Virus record (IMG/VR): IMGVR_UViG_3300031867_003838
Span: 1-44,670 of that record
DNA: 44,670 bases
From: a virus
Lineage: Duplodnaviria > Heunggongvirae > Uroviricota > Caudoviricetes
Reading direction: 5' to 3' (one strand)
The position numbers and the translations under genes were made by a program. Within the stretch, counting starts at the first letter, position 1. The number at the start of each line of letters is the position of its first letter. The notes under the pieces were generated by a model. That model searched no databases. It was not told the DNA's origin and was given only the letters and a program-made list of their open reading frames with translations. Shown here piece by piece: positions 7,361 through 44,400 of this stretch.

Positions 7361-10217
7361 TGTCGGAATATGGAGTTAAGTCTCGTCTAATAAATGCAGC
7401 TAGTATAGAAGAATGCAACCAGGGCGTGAGAAATAATCTTGACTCTAAAGACTGTCTTATTACGAATAGCTTGTTTCTTGACTGGTTGTCCAATAATGGA
7501 TTAAACGTTCATAACGGATGCACGCTGGATTGTTTAAGTTTAGCATTTGATTATGGAACACGAAGCTACGAAGACGAACGAAAACATGTTGATTCATTAA
7601 TTAAGAGCTGTGATCCGAATGATACTGAGAAAATGGAGCGTCTCAAGAATTTATCAGATAATGTCGAGGCGAATAAAGATAAGTATGTAAAGATATCAAA
7701 GGATAAGCTCCGCTATAAGTATTACACAGAAGGCGTAGTGATAAACTGGAGGCATTACAACAAAGATGGTACAGTGAGAAGTATTGAGCCAATAAAATAT
7801 AAGATGTTGTACAGGACGCCCGGAAAAGCCAAAGCCGGCAAGATCGTCGTAATCCGAGAGGAGCTGCATGAAAAAGCATTAAATTTTCTACGCATGGGAA
7901 TTGAGATGCCAGATGAAAATGCACCAATAGTTGAAATGGGGGCGTATTCTTCTTTGGTGACAAGCTCGATTATTGGATATGTTCCTATACCACCAGAAGA
8001 TATTTTAATTCTTGATGATTGTCCTGCGTCGTACAAAACAGATGTTATAAGCGTCGAAGTTAATGACAACAATGAGTGTATTGCTGTGCCGCGAAATGAT
8101 TACGTGATGGAGACGGACATGTTCGACGGATCCGCTCTTATTGATCGTGATTTGTTTCCTCCGTGGGCAGATGGCTATGTTCTACTTCGCCATCATATGA
8201 CAAAGTCAGCGGCGTTTCGTACTGATATTCAACAGTACTATAAAGATTATTGTGCAGAAAAAGGTATTGATTATGAAACATTCGTACTTAAAGACAAGTG
8301 GGGCAATCCTCATTTCGCAAAAGACATTAAACTGATAATGTCAACAAACAGTTGCAAGTGGCTGAAGTTTAATGTTTCATATGAATATTGGTGTAGTTGG
8401 GTCCATAAAAACGGTTGTTCCTTTGGTGTTGTCAAGACATCGCATAAATCTAAACTTGGCGATGTTCAGCAGATGTCATACCAAATGGTCAATGTACTTG
8501 GGATAGATAGTATGTTTTCAGTTATGCATACTACTTCAGAATACATCAATGCATTACAAACAGATGATGCTGTGTTTTTGGAATATCTTGAACGCAACAA
8601 GAATTTTTCAAATGATTATGATGTATTGATAGCACTTGTAAACCACAACAGTGATTTCATAAAGAGCGAATATTTTAAAGAGAGAAGACAAACAATAATC
8701 CAGGCGTACATTAAAAATATGAAAACTGGCAAGCTTATTCAAAACGCAGATAATCTCACGTTGGTTGGGTCGCCTTATGCTTTCTTGATGCATAGCGTAG
8801 GGCTAGATCCTCATGATGATCCTACGTTCGAACATGAGGATGGAGCAATTCAATGTTATACTAATAGGTTTGACGACGGTGAGTATTTGGCGGAGTTCAG
8901 AAACCCGTTCAACTCAAGAGAGAATCTTGGATTCTTGCATAATCATCGTCATCCATTGTTAGACAAATACTTCTTGTTAGGCGATTGTATTATTGCTGTC
9001 AATGTAAATGGTACTGATTTTTGTGAGAGGAATAACGGTTCTGATTTTGACAGTGATAGTATTTATACCACAAACCAGTCAGACATAGTAACACACGCAC
9101 AGTATTGCTACAAAAACCATAAGACCATAGTCAATAACATACCAAAATCATCAAAGACATATTCAAATACAATGAAAGATTTTGCGACAGTAGACAATTC
9201 ATTAGCAAAAGCACAAGTTGCGATTGGCTCTAGCTCGAATCTCGCACAGTGCTGCTTGACATATACATTCAACTACAATGACCAAAAGTACAGAGATTAT
9301 GTATGCATCTTGGCGGTGTTGGCTTAAAGTACTGGGCCAGTTGAATGGAGACATTCTTCTAAAGATATCCGAAGGATTGCTGGAAAGCTTTGGCTAATCA
9401 GCAGGCGAGCCGGATGAACCTTTTTGTAATTCGGAAGCTTCAGAGACTAACTTTTTGAGGAGGGATACCAATAAGAAAAGACACGAGAATCGGACACCCT
9501 AACGTATAGTCGAGGGTGATGATATAGTCCAATCGGCCTGACAGGTCAGGCGCTCAGATAAAGAGCTGAGCATAAGCGATGCAGGCCGCTATAGATAGTA
9601 CGAAAAGACTTTACTCAGTAGATATACCATCAGAAATCAACCGTATAAAGTCAGATATGGATATTAAGAGTAATGGATATCCGTCGTTCTGGCGAAATAT
9701 ACGCCCCGGTTTCAATGGGTTTATAAATAACAAACTCAAGTGCCCAATGAACGAATTGGCGCATTACAAGGCTCAGAGGCCACATCATAATCCAAATCCA
9801 ATCCCAAATCAGGAATTCTTTCATAAACATGAATTAACAGATAGCAGGCGCAAATGCAGGCGCGTTGAGAATTTAATAGAGAAGTATTCGCTGGAATTAT
9901 ATGACTATAATATGTCAGATGACAAAGAGTATGAATCATTCCTTTTACTTCGCAAAGATTTTGACGATCTTATTAGTGACATCCAGCGTACATATATATC
10001 AAATAATTACCTCGGTCTCATGTCGTGGCTGATTGATCGCGCTCTTCTGATCACTCCTGACGTCGTCAGAACAGTTGATCAGATGCAGTCGACGCTTCAC
10101 AAGAACAGATCCTTGCTTTTGAAGGTACTGTATGACGTGAGTCCGAACCAGTTTCTGCAGTGTTTCGTGCAGAAAAGTGAACAGTGCGGCGATTTTGATC
10201 GACGAAAACCCGCATAA
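7357..10217 (+). CDS. yonO: YonO-like single-subunit RNA polymerase; exons 7357-9324 and 9582-10217 (about 867 aa spliced)
   Basis: MFDGSALI, FRNP and catalytic NGSDFDSD (DxDxD) motifs; removing 9325-9581 gives a continuous ILAVLA|QAAIDSTK; position upstream of HU and the morphogenesis genes matches SPbeta yonO-yonN. Confidence 0.85.
9325..9581 (+). mobile_element. Group I intron (257 nt, ORF-less) in the RNAP gene
   Basis: Exon ends in U, intron ends in G. P1: UUGGCU pairs with GGCCAG (U.G at the splice site). P10: CUG/CAG. Core elements UUGCUGGAAA, AAUCAGCAG, CAGAGACUA and GAUAUAGUCC (P7 GACUA/UAGUC). Confidence 0.92.
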
Positions 10218-13813: not shown

Positions 13814-14728
13814 ATGGAAGAAAAGATCTGTGGTATTTATAGAATCACTAATACAGTAAATGGTAAGTCTTATGTTGGTCAAAGTGTTGATGTTAAGTCT
13901 CGTATAAGTCATCATCGTTCTGAGCTGAGAAATAATAGGCATGAAAATAGTTATTTACAAAATGCGTGGAACAAATACGGTGAGGAAAATTTCACATTTG
14001 AAATATTAGAACGATGTTCTCGCAATGAATTAGATGAACGAGAGATTTATTATATTGATCACTTTAAGACCTACAAGACTTTTAATGGATATAATTTAAC
14101 TCTCGGTGGAGATGGGACCCATATTGTCAACGAGGTATTACAGTTTGATGCATATGGAAATTTTATAAAAGAATATGAAAATGGAATAGTTGCAAGCGAG
14201 GAACTTAATATTAGCGCGGGTACAATTTACGCGTGCCTAACAAAAAGAATCAAGAAGGCTGATATGTATATTTTTGTGTATAAATCAGAATATAAAGATA
14301 AGTCTTCATTAGAATGGTGGCTCGATTCAAATAGAAATACTCCCGTTGAACAATATGATTTGTATGGCAATTTATTAAACACGTGGGCATCATGTGCTGA
14401 AATAGTTAGAGAGTTGGGGTTTAATCCAATTCAATGTTTAATTCATGTAACAAAATCATGCCATGGTTATATATGGAAAAGAATTAATGATAATGACATT
14501 CTAATTACGCCTGAATACTGCGAGGCGGTTCGAACCGCTGTAGAGAAGAGAAAGAAAAAGAAAATATATCAGTATGATTTAGATAATAATCTTGTAGCTG
14601 TTTTTAACAGCACAGGAGAATTACAAAAGGAAGGATACAGCGATTGGGTGGTGAAAGAATGCTGTACCGGCATAAGAGAGCAATATAGAGGATACAAATG
14701 GAGTTATGAAGAATTAGAGGTGGCTTAA
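13814..14728 (+). CDS. Free-standing GIY-YIG homing endonuclease with NUMOD1-type repeats
   Basis: GIYRITNTVNGKSYVGQS...FEILE...EREIYYI; three [VI]xQ[FY]DxxGN-like repeats; AT-rich. Confidence 0.92.
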   Translation: MEEKICGIYRITNTVNGKSYVGQSVDVKSRISHHRSELRNNRHENSYLQNAWNKYGEENFTFEILERCSRNELDEREIYYIDHFKTYKTFNGYNLTLGGDGTHIVNEVLQFDAYGNFIKEYENGIVASEELNISAGTIYACLTKRIKKADMYIFVYKSEYKDKSSLEWWLDSNRNTPVEQYDLYGNLLNTWASCAEIVRELGFNPIQCLIHVTKSCHGYIWKRINDNDILITPEYCEAVRTAVEKRKKKKIYQYDLDNNLVAVFNSTGELQKEGYSDWVVKECCTGIREQYRGYKWSYEELEVA

Positions 14729-23003: not shown

Positions 23004-24167
23004 GTGGGATTATTATCACAGGAAGAAGTAGAGAAAAGATTCAATGATATATACTATGATGATTTTGACATTATAGGCCATTACACAGGATGCAAGAATA
23101 AAATCAAAATACGTTGTAATAAATGTGGGTATGAATTCTACAGACATGCTGGAGATTTGTGGAGAGGAACTTTATCTTGCCCAAATTGCGGAGATGGTTG
23201 CAAAGGTTCCAACTCTCTGTATGTCGGTATAAATGATTTATGGACGGCTCGCCCAGATATAGCTAAGTTATTAGCAAATCCAGAAGATGGTTATAAATAT
23301 TCTTACAGCACTCATTTTAAACTAGATTTTGTTTGTCCAGATTGTGGGTCAATTGTTAATAAGAGACCAAGAGATTTATTTGGTCAGAATAATAATTTTC
23401 GTTGCGAGTATTGTTCAGATGGGTATCCATATCCAGAAAAATTTATTAGATCTCTATTAGATCAATGTGGTATTGAATATACTTATCAGTTTAGTTCTAA
23501 GGACGCCGAATGGTGTAAGGGATATAGGTACGATTTTTGTTTACTTGGTAATAATATACTTTTAGAAGTAAATGGGTTACAGCATTATAGTGCTAATCAC
23601 AAGTTCTTTAAATCATTGGAGGAACAACAAAGTATAGACAAAGCAAAGAAGGATTTGGCAAATAAACATGGGTATATGGTTATAGAAATAGATTGTAGCG
23701 AATCATCTATAGAATATATTCGTGATTCTGTACTTCAAACAGAACTCAATACTATCTTCGATCTATCTCAAGTAGATTGGAATCTATGTGGAGCATTTGC
23801 AATTAGATCAATTTCAAATTTAGTGTGTTCTAAATGGGATGGTGATTATTCATCTGTTGAGAAGATTGCCAATGATCTTCATATTAATGTTGTAACTGCT
23901 GTCAAGTATTTAACTGAAGGATCGTCAATTGGTTTATGTGATTTTGACAGGGATGTATATACACAATATATGAAAGATCTTCATTATAAACATATGGCAT
24001 TGAATAGACATAAGCCAATTAAATGTGTAGAAACAGGCAAGATATATAATTCATTTGCTGAGATCAGAAGAATTGAAAATATGTTTATACAAGGAAATGT
24101 TGTAGATAACCCAAACAGAAAAGCTTATGGCTGTCATTGGGTTTACACAGATGAGGAAGCGTCGTAA
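23004..24167 (+). CDS. Free-standing putative homing endonuclease (Zn ribbons plus Vsr-like/PD-(D/E)xK domain)
   Basis: CNKC/CPNC, CPDC/CEYC; YRYDF...ILLEVNGLQHY; C-terminal KPIKCVETGKIYNS (NUMOD-like); AT-rich; GTG start with SD AAGGAG. Confidence 0.78.
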   Translation: MGLLSQEEVEKRFNDIYYDDFDIIGHYTGCKNKIKIRCNKCGYEFYRHAGDLWRGTLSCPNCGDGCKGSNSLYVGINDLWTARPDIAKLLANPEDGYKYSYSTHFKLDFVCPDCGSIVNKRPRDLFGQNNNFRCEYCSDGYPYPEKFIRSLLDQCGIEYTYQFSSKDAEWCKGYRYDFCLLGNNILLEVNGLQHYSANHKFFKSLEEQQSIDKAKKDLANKHGYMVIEIDCSESSIEYIRDSVLQTELNTIFDLSQVDWNLCGAFAIRSISNLVCSKWDGDYSSVEKIANDLHINVVTAVKYLTEGSSIGLCDFDRDVYTQYMKDLHYKHMALNRHKPIKCVETGKIYNSFAEIRRIENMFIQGNVVDNPNRKAYGCHWVYTDEEAS

Positions 24168-26034: not shown

Positions 26035-26538
26035 ATGGCAACTGTAAGAAAAACTACAACGTCTGCTGAAACCGCAAGCGTTAAAAAGTTTAAAGACACT
26101 GACATGATCAGATGTGTATCATGCACCGCCGGTAAACTGGTAATGGTCGGTATGAAAACCAAGGATCCGTATATTTGGGTATCTGAGGGTGACACCGTTG
26201 ACGTGCCATATATTGACCTTATTGCAGCGATCCGGTCACGTAGTAACTACGTGTATAGACCTCGCTTTGTAATTGATGATCCAGACTTCATCGCACAGCA
26301 TAAGGATCTCGACACACTGTATAGCCGTCTCTACTCGAAGAGCGATTTAATGAGTGTGTTCGACATGCCGGCAGCACGGATGAAGAAAGCTATTACTCAG
26401 CTTCCGGATGGAGTCAAGGAGACTGTTAAGTCCCTGGCTATCACGGCAATTGAGAATGGATCCATGGATTCCATCAGCAAAATCAAAGCAATCGACGAGA
26501 TCTTCGGTACACAGATGCTCATTAAAATGACGTCATGA
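26035..26538 (+). CDS. Hypothetical virion/head-assembly protein (167 aa)
   Basis: ORF with SD following the capsid gene. Confidence 0.7.
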   Translation: MATVRKTTTSAETASVKKFKDTDMIRCVSCTAGKLVMVGMKTKDPYIWVSEGDTVDVPYIDLIAAIRSRSNYVYRPRFVIDDPDFIAQHKDLDTLYSRLYSKSDLMSVFDMPAARMKKAITQLPDGVKETVKSLAITAIENGSMDSISKIKAIDEIFGTQMLIKMTS

Positions 26539-26554
26539 GAAATGGAGGTGCATT

Positions 26555-27028
26555 ATGGCCTCCATTAATTTTAACGAAATATACTCACGCTTCTTCAGCA
26601 AAGTAGAAGCATTCGACTTCTTATATGAAGAAGCATCCGCAGAGGCTCTGGCGGCGCATATGTCCGAATGGATAGCCGCTACCCTCTCCCACCCACATAT
26701 TCGAAAACTGTTTAAGACTATTGAAGTGAACGACGAGGACGGAACTATTACATACGAGATGAACTACGAGATGGATGAGTATTCAGACAAGCAGTTCCTC
26801 ATCAATGTAATGGCATACGGAATGGTTCGTGCTTGGCTTGAGCCGAAGGTGAGAAGTATCACGAATATTGTACAGAACTTCGGAACTTCGGACGCAAAAT
26901 TTTATAGCCAAAGTTCTCACCTTTCTGAACTTCGTGCACTTCTCGAAGACTCAGAGCGTGAGATACGATCTCTCGTAGGAAACAGAGGAGCTTTCAATAA
27001 TAAATATCTTGACGGAGATAAGCTATGA
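26555..27028 (+). CDS. Putative head-tail adaptor (157 aa)
   Basis: Position and size; SD GGAGGTG. Confidence 0.55.
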   Translation: MASINFNEIYSRFFSKVEAFDFLYEEASAEALAAHMSEWIAATLSHPHIRKLFKTIEVNDEDGTITYEMNYEMDEYSDKQFLINVMAYGMVRAWLEPKVRSITNIVQNFGTSDAKFYSQSSHLSELRALLEDSEREIRSLVGNRGAFNNKYLDGDKL

Positions 27029-27378
27029 TTTCCAAGTATGGTGATTTCTCCGCAAAACAGTTAAACGAATATAGGGAACGACTACACAGTAAAATGTTTT
27101 GGCTCCTGCTATATAAGGATCCTAAAACATCAGATCAATTTGAAACGGTTAATTTCGACAGGTACTTTGAGAATCTGATGAAAGAACTGAATGGCCTCGG
27201 TGATCTTCTACTTCACCCAAATGGTTTGGTTGAAATGATGAGCGAACTTGAGGCCGCATATAACGAATCGATGCACGAAGAATTCAGCTACCCCATCTAC
27301 CGTAAGTTCGTACTGGATGCACATAACATTCTCGACACTATGAATTGGGAGGAAACTGCCGATGATTACAATGGATGA
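27025..27378 (+). CDS. Hypothetical neck-region protein (117 aa)
   Basis: Translationally coupled to both neighbours. Confidence 0.65.
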   Translation: MISKYGDFSAKQLNEYRERLHSKMFWLLLYKDPKTSDQFETVNFDRYFENLMKELNGLGDLLLHPNGLVEMMSELEAAYNESMHEEFSYPIYRKFVLDAHNILDTMNWEETADDYNG

Positions 27379-29224
27379 TTACTTAGCATCTTTGAAGAAT
27401 AAGGGAAACCACTTAGGGGAAGTTAGAAAGAACCGCTCAGATATGTTGATGAATGTTACGTTCACTGGCGATCCGGCATACCGAAAAGTATATATTCTGG
27501 ACCCTGACACCGGCTGGAAATGGTGCGACGCTAAATTCTTCAAGCATCAAACGCCGCAGCTTGCGAGAGATCATGTAGACAGTTGGTTACAGTTCAGGCC
27601 AAAGGATCATCACCCAGTTGGGTGTTACGTCTTTATTCCAGATGATACGTCATATGAGATGGATATAGATTTGGAGCACCCGTTCCGTGGAGATGTCAGT
27701 AACCTTTGGATGATTGTTGATAAGACTGACTATAGACAGTTTCCGCAGTATATGGTGTTGAAGATAAATTGGGATCTCAAGTGGTTATTGGGATCTGGTG
27801 ATAGGAAAAGGATTGAACATTGTTTCGCAGCCGTGAGAGCTGCTAATAGTTACACAAGTTGTGATATTCACACAGCTCGCTGCATTGGGAAACCTTGCAG
27901 TGTATTCCTTCTAATTGACTGGGACACCCTTAGAGACATGTTAACCACAACGCAGTGATGAAACACGCACAGGCGTGAAGGTTTAAAAATAACATGTATT
28001 GGGTAATCAGCAGCCGAGATCCGAATAGGATCGGGTTCATCGACTATTGGCTGAAATGCCATTAGGGGCAAGCGCTCCGAAATGAAGGACACCTACGGCA
28101 GATGCTAGGGTGAATGATATAGTCAGTGCTCTTATGAAAGTAAGAGAAAATCGGTAATACGATCTTTGGCAGAGTAGCGATTTGCCAAAGTAACACAACA
28201 GGGTATTTGGAGAGATTAGTTATACTACGCTAGTCCGCTGTATTCGGAAACGGTACAGTGTATTTCTTTTAACTGCTGGGAACTCTCTACCGCCCTCCCG
28301 CCACAACGTAAGGATGAAATAAGCCTAAGCGTGACGGCTTGAAAAGTGAAGGGATCAGACAATCAGCAGCCAAGCCTCGAACAGAGGAAGGTTCAACGCT
28401 CATCGGCTGAAATGCCGTTAGTGGGAAGTCCCGCGAAATGGAGAACTCCTAAGGCACATGCTACGGAGAATGATATGAGCTAAGCTTACATGAGAGTGTA
28501 AGAAAACTAATTGGTTGAGGCCAATTAGTCTTCGAATCCGTAACGAAGATTTGAAGTAATGGTACTGTTCAGACTTGTGACCCTCGACACCATCACAAAG
28601 ATGTGGGTGCCGGACACATACAATGTATACCATGATCGGCTCAAAGAGTTTGATCTTTGCGACACACGTTCAATCAATCACCAGATGAGGCTGATGATTA
28701 CACACAATCAGCTCCATCCCAAAGTATATGAAGTGTCTAAAGTGGATGACACAACTCCTGCGGGTATTGTTCAGTTAACTTTAAAACAGACACTTTATGA
28801 TCCAAAACGTGATAATCCCGATCTTATGGTCTGTGACTATTATGACGACGGTGGCGACGTAGCCATAACCAAACCGTCCACTTCAGAAGAACCATCTACC
28901 ACAAGTACAATCATGTATATGGCCGTCAATACTGACGGTGAACTTGAACCGGCAGAGGCACCTTTGGCGTTGTCCATTGGTACTCTGTATTATTACGGTG
29001 CAGATTTCGACGGCGCTCAGTGGCGCATAGAGCTCGAAGGAGACTATGACGATGCCACACGTCGTGCACTTGAGAAGTTAATGGTCATACGGAAAGTAGA
29101 TGATTCGACAATCTCAATTCGTCCTGGCAAATCGAATAAGATCAAAGGACTTACATTTAAACTAATTGTCTGTGATATAGATGGTGGTCATGAGTCCTCC
29201 ATCAATTTGGAGGTGGAATCATGA
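27362..29224 (+). CDS. Putative head-closure/neck protein; exons 27362-27859, 28202-28216 and 28568-29224 (about 389 aa spliced)
   Basis: Removing two introns gives ANSYTS|GIWRD|FRLVTLDTITKMWVP in one frame; function inferred from position. Confidence 0.75.
27860..28201 (+). mobile_element. Group I intron neck-A (342 nt, ORF-less)
   Basis: Exon ends AGU and pairs with IGS GCU; AAUCAGCAG; P7 GACUA/UAGUC (AUCGACUAU, GAUAUAGUCA); terminal G. Confidence 0.85.
28217..28567 (+). mobile_element. Group I intron neck-B (351 nt, ORF-less)
   Basis: P1 GAU|UAG pairs with CUAGUC; AACUGCUGGGAA, AAUCAGCAG; P7 GCUCA/UGAGC; 3' end located by analogy with neck-A. Confidence 0.82.
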
Positions 29225-29811
29225 AGAGAGATATAAATAGAATCCTGGATGATGTTAAGAATAGTGACATCATCTACAGGAAGTCGAAGATCAAAGAGAT
29301 CTTTAATAACGACCCTGACATCAAGGATGTCCTTGGACAGCTTCCACCTCGTCCACTGAATAAGTATGCGGATCCGGCGAATCCAACTGAAGAAGAATTG
29401 GAAGAGCGTCAACGGATTCGAGAATACAACAATAAAGTTTCTCACCCGCAGATACTTTCGTTTCTGAAGGTGAATGACATTCAGACAGAGGTACTTAACT
29501 TCATTATGTTCGACATATCTGATGAACGGGCATCCTACGTGAACGAACTTGTAAAACATCAGATACTTACCGTAATGATCTTAGTACAAGAAGATGATAT
29601 GGAAACCGAGTATGGAATAGATCGAGTGGATCTTTTGAGTTACATAGTAAAAGATTTGCTGTGTTGGAGTAATGACACTGGACTGCATTATAGATTAGAG
29701 TCGGACACATTTGGTGTGACTGAATCACAATACTATGCAAGAACCCTTAAGTTCTTGGTCAAAACTCCAAACACCAATACTTTCAAGAATGGTAGAATGA
29801 TAAATGGGTGA
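29221..29811 (+). CDS. Putative tail terminator/completion protein (196 aa)
   Basis: Position between neck and tail-tube genes. Confidence 0.5.
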   Translation: MKRDINRILDDVKNSDIIYRKSKIKEIFNNDPDIKDVLGQLPPRPLNKYADPANPTEEELEERQRIREYNNKVSHPQILSFLKVNDIQTEVLNFIMFDISDERASYVNELVKHQILTVMILVQEDDMETEYGIDRVDLLSYIVKDLLCWSNDTGLHYRLESDTFGVTESQYYARTLKFLVKTPNTNTFKNGRMING

Positions 29812-30646
29812 GTTCACTACTGACCCTCTCAAGATCTATTTCGGAGATCCATATCCTATCACAGATAATATTACAGTTAAACAACCACATATACAAGACA
29901 TTATTGACTATGGAGAGGAACAATTCTTCTCCATGTTTTTTATTTTCATCGGTAATACAACTTACCGAAAACTATTCCTCTGGAACAATGGCATAGACTG
30001 GAACAAGCTCTCAGACTTTGAGCTGTTTTGCAATTTCGCACCAACACTCAAGAAAGAAGATACGCAGGTGCTTTTTGATGACATCGACTTCTCAGAGTTT
30101 GACATCTTCTTGCGTAACGATTTCGAACCAGAACCGGAACCAGTTCCGCCACCTGGAAAGAATAAAGTGCGAGCAATTGATAGGAATAAATACAACATGA
30201 GAATGTATGACAAGTCTCATGTTTTATATAACGACAAGACGGATGTCATGATAACCGCAGATGACTACTACAAGATACGGAAGGTGCTACGAGATATGTC
30301 ACTGATATATCCCAAAACTGAATATGCATCTAGTAAAGCCACAAAAGAACTTCTTATTGAGGAAGAAATTGAAATGATTAAAAAGATTGAAAGAGAACGA
30401 AAAGACGAAAACGTTTCTACTCTTCTGCCCCTCATCTCATTCTGTGTCAATCATCCAGGGTTTAAGTATAAATTGCAAGAATTACGTTCAGTCGGAATCG
30501 CAGAATTTATGGACAGCGTAAAGCGTTTACAGCTTTATGAGTCCACCCGTGCTCTGCTTAACGGAAGCATGAGTGGTATGTGTGACATGAGTAAGGTACC
30601 GCCTGAACGATTCGACTTTACTCGAAGTTTAAATTCAAAATCATAA
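29804..30646 (+). CDS. Hypothetical tail-region protein (280 aa)
   Basis: ORF overlapping the upstream stop. Confidence 0.7.
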   Translation: MGEFTTDPLKIYFGDPYPITDNITVKQPHIQDIIDYGEEQFFSMFFIFIGNTTYRKLFLWNNGIDWNKLSDFELFCNFAPTLKKEDTQVLFDDIDFSEFDIFLRNDFEPEPEPVPPPGKNKVRAIDRNKYNMRMYDKSHVLYNDKTDVMITADDYYKIRKVLRDMSLIYPKTEYASSKATKELLIEEEIEMIKKIERERKDENVSTLLPLISFCVNHPGFKYKLQELRSVGIAEFMDSVKRLQLYESTRALLNGSMSGMCDMSKVPPERFDFTRSLNSKS

Positions 30647-41400: not shown

Positions 41401-44400
41401 TCAATGAGATCAAGAACTGTACCGATGCAAGCAAAATGTTAAGTAAGATCGACTTCCCAAACTTCGCCAACCTTCAGAAAGATTTACATAATTCAGCTAT
41501 TGAGTCTGGAGCATTAAAAGGCTCAATGGTATCAAAGATGGCAGATGCCATTAATAATCAATCAGCACAATTCTTGGCAACGTACTTTAGTTTCCAGGAT
41601 ATTATCAGATATACAAAAGAAATAACGAATGCTGTTGTGCAGACTGATAGCGCTCTTACGGAATTGAAGAAAGTTTCTGATGAGAGTAATGAAAGAATAC
41701 AACAGAGCTTTAAGAAGTCTGCTGAGACTGCGCAAGAACTTGGTAATACTATTACAAATGTAATCAATAGTACAAGTGATTGGGCGAGGCTTAATATACT
41801 AGGTCTCACATGCGGCGACGCATGTTAAATAAATCCTCTCAAATCGGTAGAACTCCAGAGATGGACAATACCGAGGGTAACGCAAGGCATGTCTTGCATC
41901 CCGTAACGATCACAGTGGTATGAGTAATTGTACCACGTATGGGGACATCTCTATGAGATGAAGGTATGATCTGATCTGCAAATATAATCGAATAATATGA
42001 AATTGCAGAGGATGGCAGAAATGACCATCCCCTTTTCTTTTGAAAAGAGTAACAAAATGTGGTTATACAATTGATGAAGCGGAAGATCTCGCAAGGGTTA
42101 CAACAATATTACAAACTGTCGGTGACAATATGACGCAAGAATCTGCGTCTGAAGGTCTTGTTAGTATTCTCCAAGGATTCCAGCTTGATCCGTCAACCGC
42201 TTTACGAGTAGTCGATTCCATAAATGAAGTGGCGAATCGAATGCCGATTGACACGAGCGGGATCACAGAGGGATTGAAAAGATCAGCGGCAAGTTTCTTT
42301 ACCGCAAATACCGATCTGAACAAATCGATCGCATTGATTACAACATCCAATGCAGTGGTTCAGGACCCTTCATCTGTCGGCACTATGTTCAAAACAAGCA
42401 GTGTTTTTATGTACAGAAATGTGCATATTGCACAAATTTAATTGCAGGTAATACCTAAAGCCTCGCACCACAATAATCGGGAAACCAGATTATGATGGGA
42501 CGAAAGTAGAAACAACGCGAGGATAGCATAAGGCCAAAAACCTAAGTGCTGTTACAATGGTTGTTCTGCAGCGAAGCACCCTAACGTTATCCGTAGACCA
42601 TACGGCATCAGTCGAGGGTGAACGTTCAACGACTAGATTCACGTCGAGTTATAGGCAGGAGAATAAGGGTGGAAATCCCGAATACCTATAACAATAATCG
42701 TAGGGCGCAATCACATATGGCGTGGGTGAAAACCCCTTAAATCGAAAAGGTTTGCTCCTCTTCTACTATTGTAGGAAGGATGAAGAAATAGTCTGGTCTC
42801 ATGCGAAAGCATGAGATTTTTTATGCTGTAAAATAAATAATTGGGAAATAAAAGAAGAAAATATACTGAAGAGGATTATAAGATGAAATGCGAAGAGTTT
42901 GGATTAGAATACATCGGTTTTCATAAAGAGTATCATAAGGGTACTATGATTGATTATATTTGCCCAACGCATAGAGATAAAGGTATACAGAGTACTGAAT
43001 GGAGCCATTTTAGATTGTATGCCCATGGATGTAGATATTGTTCTGGGCGCGGAATGACGACTGAAGAAGCTCAGAAGAAAATAAAGAATCCAAACATAAT
43101 ACTAATATCACCTTATCAAGGCGCTGAAAAACCGGTTCAATGTCATTGTAATGTGTGTGGTAATGATTGGATATCTAATCGTCCAATGGATTTATTTCGT
43201 AGAGAAGGCGGATGTCCTGTGTGTGGAGAAGTAAATCGCAGATTAAATAGAAGAAACACTCATGAGGACTTTGCTAAACGGTTAGAGACGATCAATACAA
43301 ATATTGAACTCGTCGGCGAGTATACCAGAGCACATGATTTTATAAAATGTAAATGCAAGATTCATGGCATTGAATGGGAGTCTATAGCATGTAATCTTCT
43401 AAATGAAACTGCTGGGTGCCCTATATGCAATAGCTCAAAAGGTGAAAGAGAATTAATCGAAGCTTTAATATCATTGAATGTTAATTATACTACTCAAAAG
43501 ATTTTCAAAGATTGTAGAGATAAATTACCATTACGTTTTGATGCTTTTGATATAGATAGAAATATAGCGTTTGAATTTCAAGGGGAACAGCATTATTTTC
43601 CAGTCGATTTTACATTTAATAATCCTGATAAAGCTAAAGAAGATTTTGAGGCTTTGCAGAGGAGAGATGGTATTAAGAAAAGATATTGCGAAGAAAATGA
43701 TATTAAGCTCATATGCATACCATATTGGGAACGCGGTAATGTATTGAAATACTTAATTGAAAGTGTAGATGAATATAAGGAGGTTAATACAGCATAATAA
43801 ATGATGCGATTTGTGACCGCATCAAACATTTCGGCTTAGTGCTAGAATTCGCGGATCAAATATAGAGTAAACTTTTGCTCCCCCGTATGGCGACATGCGG
43901 GTAAACAATCGGCTTAATACGGTGAAAGTCCAGAGATGGATAACACCGTGGGTAAGATTTTAATTTATTAAAAATCCCGTAACGACCACAGTAGCATAAG
44001 TAATTATGCCACGTATGCCGATCATCTCTATGAGATGAAGATATGGTCTGATCTGCAAATATAATCGAATAATATGAAATTGCAGAGGATGGCAGAAATG
44101 ACCATCCCCTTTTCTTTTGAAAAGAGTAACAAAATGTAAAGGAATTAGGAGAGGAAGAAGACGAGTTTACTAAGTCATCTTCAAAACTTCGTAGCACGGT
44201 CAAAGCCATTACCGGTTTTGACATTATGAAAGATGCAAGTACTTATAAAGATATTTATGAAATACTCGATGGTATTGGCAAAAAGTTTAAAGACTTAAGT
44301 GATATTGAGCAGGCAGGATTGCTTGAAGCACTCGGCGGTAAAAGAGCGTCGAATGCTTTGGCAGCTGTTTTAAATAATAGTGAAATGCTCGAAGAAGCAT

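Follow-up and report, generated by a model that had tools for sequence, protein, structure and literature searches.

Very short exons enclosed between two group I introns have been described in several systems. In Staphylococcus phage Twort, introns I2 and I3 of orf142 (Landthaler and Shub 1999, as cited in PMC10136302, PMC11878797, and PMC3073962) are two IA2 introns that resemble each other and enclose a very short exon; the gene encodes a virion structural protein, the tail tube. According to these later accounts, the Twort gene contains three introns, its exon of 23 nt can be skipped, and skipping shifts the frame, while in the phage gene analyzed here there are two introns, the exon of 15 nt would be skipped in frame, and only the inclusion product has been seen; the two introns are about 70% alike in their cores and differ in P1, P7, and P9.0. 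Multi-intron genes of the Bastillevirinae (PMC11878797) are likewise found in Bacillota phages, where two or three group I introns interrupt a gene and leave small internal exons, one of which has been described in phiNIT1 rNDPL, and substantial exon skipping has been reported for SIOphi. Unlike the present locus, these are DNA-metabolism and terminase genes rather than neck genes, and skipping has been measured there. In Coxiella burnetii, as presented in PMC10136302, a 34-nt exon also lies between two group I introns, but it belongs to 23S rRNA, the introns are of different subgroups, and skipping was observed. In placozoan cox1 (PMC5436844), a micro-exon made by intron insertion is likewise required for an invariant residue, although this mitochondrial exon of 1 nt between two group IB introns is far more extreme. 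Finally, crAss-like Delta/Zeta phages resemble our case as gut phages with group I introns splitting capsid genes; they belong to a different phage order, and the passages considered (PMC7886860) describe no micro-exon or RNA analysis.

The layout thus has published precedents, and the mechanism is not a new one. What we describe is an RNA-backed, apparently self-spliced micro-exon in a structural gene of an uncultured (rumen) phage, and its added value lies in the RNA evidence, a probable three-site insertion hotspot, and a natural series of differently differentiated intron pairs. The window, i.e., the whole stretch of 44,670 nt that was analyzed, comprises bases 1-44670 of an incomplete 108.7-kb phage record. 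Exon 1 of the neck gene (27362..27859; all features are on the plus strand) bears codons 1-166 ending in SYTS, with ACA AGT as its last codons up to 27859. It is followed by intron A (27860..28201), an ORF-less, IA2-like group I intron of 342 nt that ends in ACAACAG, by the 15-nt micro-exon (28202..28216; codons 167-171, GIWRD), by intron B (28217..28567), also ORF-less and IA2-like, with 351 nt and a final G, and by exon 3 (28568..29224), whose codons 172-389 encode the rest of a second stopper-like barrel and the C-terminal Ig-like domain. These boundaries had been placed by an earlier note written from the sequence alone, and they proved exact to the base, as did the in-frame TAG with which intron B opens at 28217. 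The motif G/GGx-xxx-TGG...T occurs once in the 708-nt insert, precisely in the 15-mer, and the longest ORFs inside introns A and B have 23 aa. Joining exons 1-3 yields an open frame of 389 aa; retention of intron A gives a 198-aa product and that of intron B a 171-aa product, while skipping of the micro-exon keeps the frame, as the note had foreseen, and leaves a 384-aa protein without GIWRD. The annotation should be corrected, since gene callers split the neck gene and its relatives into false products of 171-236 aa.

The product is a head-closure or stopper-type neck protein, an assignment well supported by the predicted fold and gene position and in agreement with the earlier note; its presence in the virion is predicted. 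The model of an intron-less homologue (P0001, 66% identical to the spliced protein; pLDDT 83-84) consists of two tandem stopper-like barrels (residues 15-137 and 130-268) and an Ig-like domain. Among solved structures, its top match is the Chi neck protein (Z 8.7, rmsd 3.6, 102 aligned residues), followed by P1 (Z 8.4) and the R4C stopper (Z 8.1), and 22 of the top 24 matches are chains of phage necks/connectors or phage-like elements. A BFVD match is called ‘head closure knob’ (E 3e-11); in Foldseek searches with the full-length model, the Ig domain dominates the matches. Searches of Pfam, PDB sequences, and INPHARED gave no named homologue. As modeled, this two-barrel plus Ig-like neck protein is longer than the usual single-barrel stoppers. 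The gene order in relatives, read from precomputed Pfam calls at their loci and linked to the window through synteny with the relative L081, is YonD, YonB capsid, three small genes, the neck gene, YomW, and YomU tube, so that the head-tail module appears to be arranged as in SPbeta-like phages; a direct Pfam scan of the window ORFs gave no match to the YonD/YonB/YomW/YomU module. Two distant homologues are located in Lachnospiraceae and Clostridiales MAGs, which may be a weak hint to the phage host.

That the 15-nt segment is a real coding exon, as the earlier note had suggested, follows from an ungapped alignment with homologues and from an exact join in an RNA library (see below). The spliced protein was aligned to full-length intron-less homologues, and in 88 of 88 there is no gap at either junction. 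S163, Y164, and G167 are invariant among these 88 proteins, W169 is found in 87, and the closest homologue has SYTSGIWRD. The note had named homologues devoid of a GxWxD segment as evidence against its reading; the homologues do carry GxW at this position. The spacing of the motif is the same in all 133 intron-less loci, and a shorter motif was found in none of the 88 proteins and none of the 133 loci. In the monomer model, the peptide sits in a low-confidence hairpin (residues 165-170, pLDDT <50), and this hairpin, carrying the G and W, would presumably become ordered on assembly. A skipped product lacking the invariant G and W is more likely waste than an isoform.

Both interruptions bear the hallmarks of group I introns, as had been proposed: a P1 with a U.G pair, a P3-P7 core, and a terminal G with P9.0. 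Intron A matches the Rfam model RF00028 over 27850-28146 with 50.2 bits (E 6e-10; cut-off 50). Intron B, with 24.6 bits (E 0.029) over 28207-28502, is below the cut-off, and its group I status rests on 71% identity to intron A over 244 nt (E 5e-25) together with the full set of core helices, all of which are retained, compared with A, by compensatory substitutions, among them three double changes in P7. Among the sequences of the 108.7-kb genome, B is the sole clear relative of A. In intron A, P1 (27857-27863/27871-27877) has 7 bp with the pair U27859.G27875; P3 is formed by 27906-27911/28084-28089, P7 by 28042-28046/28120-28124, and P9.0 (UG/CA) by 28127-28128/28199-28200, before the terminal G 28201. 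In intron B, P1 (28214-28220/28229-28235) likewise has 7 bp with U28216.G28233, P3 is formed by 28264-28269/28440-28445, P7 by 28398-28402/28476-28480, and P9.0 (AG/CU) by 28483-28484/28565-28566, before the terminal G 28567. Subgroup IA2 is marked by two hairpins, P7.1 and P7.2, that separate P7 from the 3′ strand of P3, and both introns have them. In intron A, they occupy 28048-28061 and 28065-28078, and it is this region that forms the internal segment noticed earlier as common to A and B; the IA2 call rests on this criterion, RF00028 being a generic model and the only one scored. Across 26 related introns, the proportions of paired cells are 154/156 for P3, 103/104 for P4, 130/130 for P7, and 182/182 for P9, with compensatory changes in the paired core helices; P7.1 (85/88) and P7.2 (129/130) are also paired, and both hairpins appear in folds. 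The 5′ exon ends with U in 26 of 26, removal restores the frame in 26 of 26, and the terminal G is present in 25. Folding of the sequence gave a z of -4.9 for intron A, while the unconstrained fold of intron B (z -1.6) is not significant alone, as expected for a pseudoknot. Taken on their sequence and structure, introns A and B are thus genuine group I introns, from which we infer self-splicing chemistry.

A search for truncated homologues returned 41 proteins, in most of which the break falls after ANS, ANSYTS, or GxWxD. From 23 loci, a sample picked for interrupted genes, 26 introns were delimited; site A alone is occupied in 13 loci, site B alone in four, an upstream site alone in three, and both A and B in three, namely the window, L081, and L172. 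Outside these 23, 138 loci are uninterrupted; all 80 IMG/VR loci obtained with a full-length profile have an uninterrupted neck gene, which is a selection effect of the ranking. A scan of viral contigs with the single protein gave no match, and a DNA pattern for double occupancy gave 14 matches in viral contigs, none of which encodes either the protein or any of the introns. The target sites of the family, after codons 163, 166, and 171, all fall within 24 nt of a single invariant motif. The first of them (ANS/YTS; window equivalent 27850/27851) lies 9 nt upstream of site A and is used in L112, L160, L165, L083, and P0089, the last being 95% identical to the window in exon 1 and having, judging from gene coordinates, the upstream-site intron only. 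In this small sampling, no allele combining the upstream site with A or B (exons of 9 or 24 nt) was found; a hypothetical triple allele would hold exons of 9 and 15 nt, and none was found. The upstream-site intron of L112 (L112:3508-4931) has A instead of G as its last base at the protein-restoring position; it may be a terminal-A variant, an intron that has lost its activity, or the result of an error.

The distribution of the introns is that of mobile elements. On the host tree, intron state requires 20 changes against a shuffled mean of 20.8, i.e., there is no clustering, and near-identical host proteins occur with and without an intron (L189/P0082, L115/P0080, and L149/P0013). Fourteen of the 26 introns are 1.36-1.53 kb long and contain an ORF, several of these called LAGLIDADG_3; introns A and B of the window encode no endonuclease, and tblastn with the intron ORFs of relatives found no match in the incomplete phage record. 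In a tree built on cores without P1, the window intron A clusters with L081_A and the lone L171_A (100/94), to which it is 87% and 84% identical, while intron B clusters with L081_B and the lone L161_B (100/100), being 81% identical to each; a single clade of the window introns is rejected (p-AU 1.3e-24). The common ancestry of A and B suggested in the earlier note thus holds at the level of the family but not as a local duplication. The L172 pair derives from different intron lineages and sits on a different host branch, so double occupancy would have arisen at least twice, the two origins resting on starred branches. Judged by these patterns, the motif A-N-S-Y-T-S-G-x-W-x-D serves as a hotspot for a single family of mobile group I introns of IA2-like type that target invariant codons. 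The phage lineage would have gained its two introns, at 166 and 171, from different intron lineages, both introns would since have lost their endonucleases, and the 15-nt exon would be the coding remainder between the two targets.

Contigs of the locus were found in metatranscriptomes. In run X1, from bovine gut, a 4,132-nt contig shows 0 differences over 2,793 exon nt and consists of the pieces 26500-27859 and 28568-30000 with the exact 15 exon bases between them. It corresponds to the doubly spliced product with the micro-exon included and is very probably mRNA, since the long contigs of other runs differ by about 2-9%; the evidence consists of a single contig from a single study, and RNA libraries can contain DNA. 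For the earlier note, a single excision of 27860-28567 as the only cDNA product would have spoken against its reading; the contig shows inclusion instead. In run X14, contigs span the borders of exon 1, intron A, the micro-exon, and intron B, so that the unspliced layout exists in another sample too. Exon-skipped or half-spliced junctions are not listed among the contigs of four runs, which is not evidence against skipping because contigs lose rare variants. Read depth in X1 and X2 is lower over the introns and was not counted as evidence of splicing.

Each ribozyme would have its own P9.0 and be guided by a sequence of its own, AGU in A and GAU in B. The earlier note supposed that the same 15 nt have to serve A as the P10 partner and B as P1, forcing ordered or competing splicing. 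Both introns do use the exon, but at opposite ends: P10 of A, which is weak, involves exon nt +2, +3, and +5, and P1 of B involves nt 13-15 (GAT), so there is no competition for the same bases, and the splicing order does not appear to be forced by the sequence. Routes to skipping look unfavorable. On the end of exon 1 after removal of A, intron B finds two wobbles only (forced fold +2.6 vs -7.6 kcal/mol), with the A core acting on the 3′ site of B one of the two P9.0 pairs is lost along with most of P10, P10 of A on exon 3 has just one pair near the splice site, and a chimeric core with a crossover after P6 has a broken P7. A crossover in L2 leaves a hybrid P2 with 6/7 pairs, a hybrid P3 between A and B would have 5/6 pairs, and a chimeric A/B ribozyme is possible. 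According to Ueda et al. (2023, PMC10136302), differentiation of the splice-site elements selects for inclusion of the exon; the differences between A and B in P1, P7, and P9.0 should thus favor it. The two introns would then splice independently and in either order to give a single 389-aa protein including GIWRD, with skipping as a minor by-product at most. We regard this whole explanation, from the hotspot and two separate invasions to independent splicing and the inclusion product, as probable with good confidence.

The alternatives touch either the RNA contig or the fate of the micro-exon. The contig might derive from the intron-less genome of a sister strain, in which case splicing here would be predicted from structure; the evidence consists of assembled contigs from RNA libraries, and near-identical relatives differ in whether they have an intron. 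Such a strain would have to match the exons perfectly where other runs diverge and lack both introns at exactly the predicted sites, while the contigs of X14 do cross the intron borders, which makes this origin rather improbable. Appreciable skipping of the Twort type, through a chimeric ribozyme made of P1 and 5′ P2 of A and the rest of B, would give a 384-aa, probably non-functional product. It draws on the similarity of the introns, on the mostly pairing hybrid P2 and P3, on the preserved frame, and on the precedents of Twort orf142 and SIOphi, but it is unlikely given that P1, P7, P9.0, and P10 differ, that the assembled RNA form contains the micro-exon, and that selection should oppose the loss of an invariant G and W from a structural protein.

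The strong reading of the earlier note, namely that the layout is kept so that a virion protein has two functional forms, or so that splicing follows an ordered switch, is very improbable. Double occupancy in three loci with two origins might be invoked for it, as might the low-confidence hairpin, which could tolerate a deletion; the in-frame skip, however, is automatic, being a side effect of all three sites falling between codons. The skip would remove G167 and W169, the shortened motif is absent from all proteins and loci inspected, most relatives have zero or one intron, P0089 has, by its gene coordinates, just the upstream-site intron, and the exon bases in P10 of A are distinct from those in P1 of B. 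Regulated skipping in doubly invaded alleles of the neck gene that produces an assembly-modulating (e.g., dominant-negative) neck isoform without GIWRD has a very slim chance; if true, it would represent functional alternative splicing by ribozymes alone. A local tandem duplication of A as the source of B has hardly any chance at all. It would account for the identity of about 70% and for B being the only clear relative of A in the genome, but each intron is closer to site-matched introns of other loci (84-87% for A, 81% for B), and under the tree model used, with one clade rejected at p-AU 1e-24, the duplication is ruled out.

The locus and its relatives are mainly of use as a natural panel for testing how tandem ribozymes avoid skipping. 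While the window pair differs in P1, P7, and P9.0, the introns of L081 (L081:3499-4196) share the same P9.0 and an identical 13-nt 3′ end, perhaps as a result of conversion between neighboring introns, and this pair is a better candidate than that of the window for 3′ splice-site confusion. In L172 (L172:3999-4697), an independent double-intron allele with the exon GVWND, the introns have P7 and P9.0 in common, and this allele offers the strongest natural candidate for skipping of the Twort type. Under the model of Ueda et al. 2023 (PMC10136302), skipping should decrease from L172 through L081 to the window.

Aside from introns A and B, the window contains further RF00028 matches at 9314-9550 (66.9 bits), 42386-42815 (46.4), and 43827-44070 (39.1), which are not close kin of A or B; the last two flank an endonuclease ORF (42841-43797) in the tape-measure region. 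Window ORFs 13814-14728 and 23004-24167 match homing-endonuclease PHROGs. In tblastn, the LAGLIDADG ORFs of site-A, site-B, and upstream-site introns did not match these two ORFs, i.e., no trans-acting mobiliser was found in the incomplete phage record. In a 96%-identical relative (L082:1090-2530), the second gene upstream (window 26555-27028) contains 1.44 kb of inserted sequence at a conserved AKFYSQ motif corresponding to window position 26901; the insert includes an A-like intron core with 79% identity to A. The window lacks such an insert at 26901, and run X14 has a matching junction. In L082, L150, L159, and L170, a conserved element starting CCAGACAGCGGG is located just after P9 of A-like cores. 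Behind it come a hairpin, a ribosome-binding site, and then the downstream ORF, an endonuclease gene where checked; the element is possibly a phage promoter or a translational control element.
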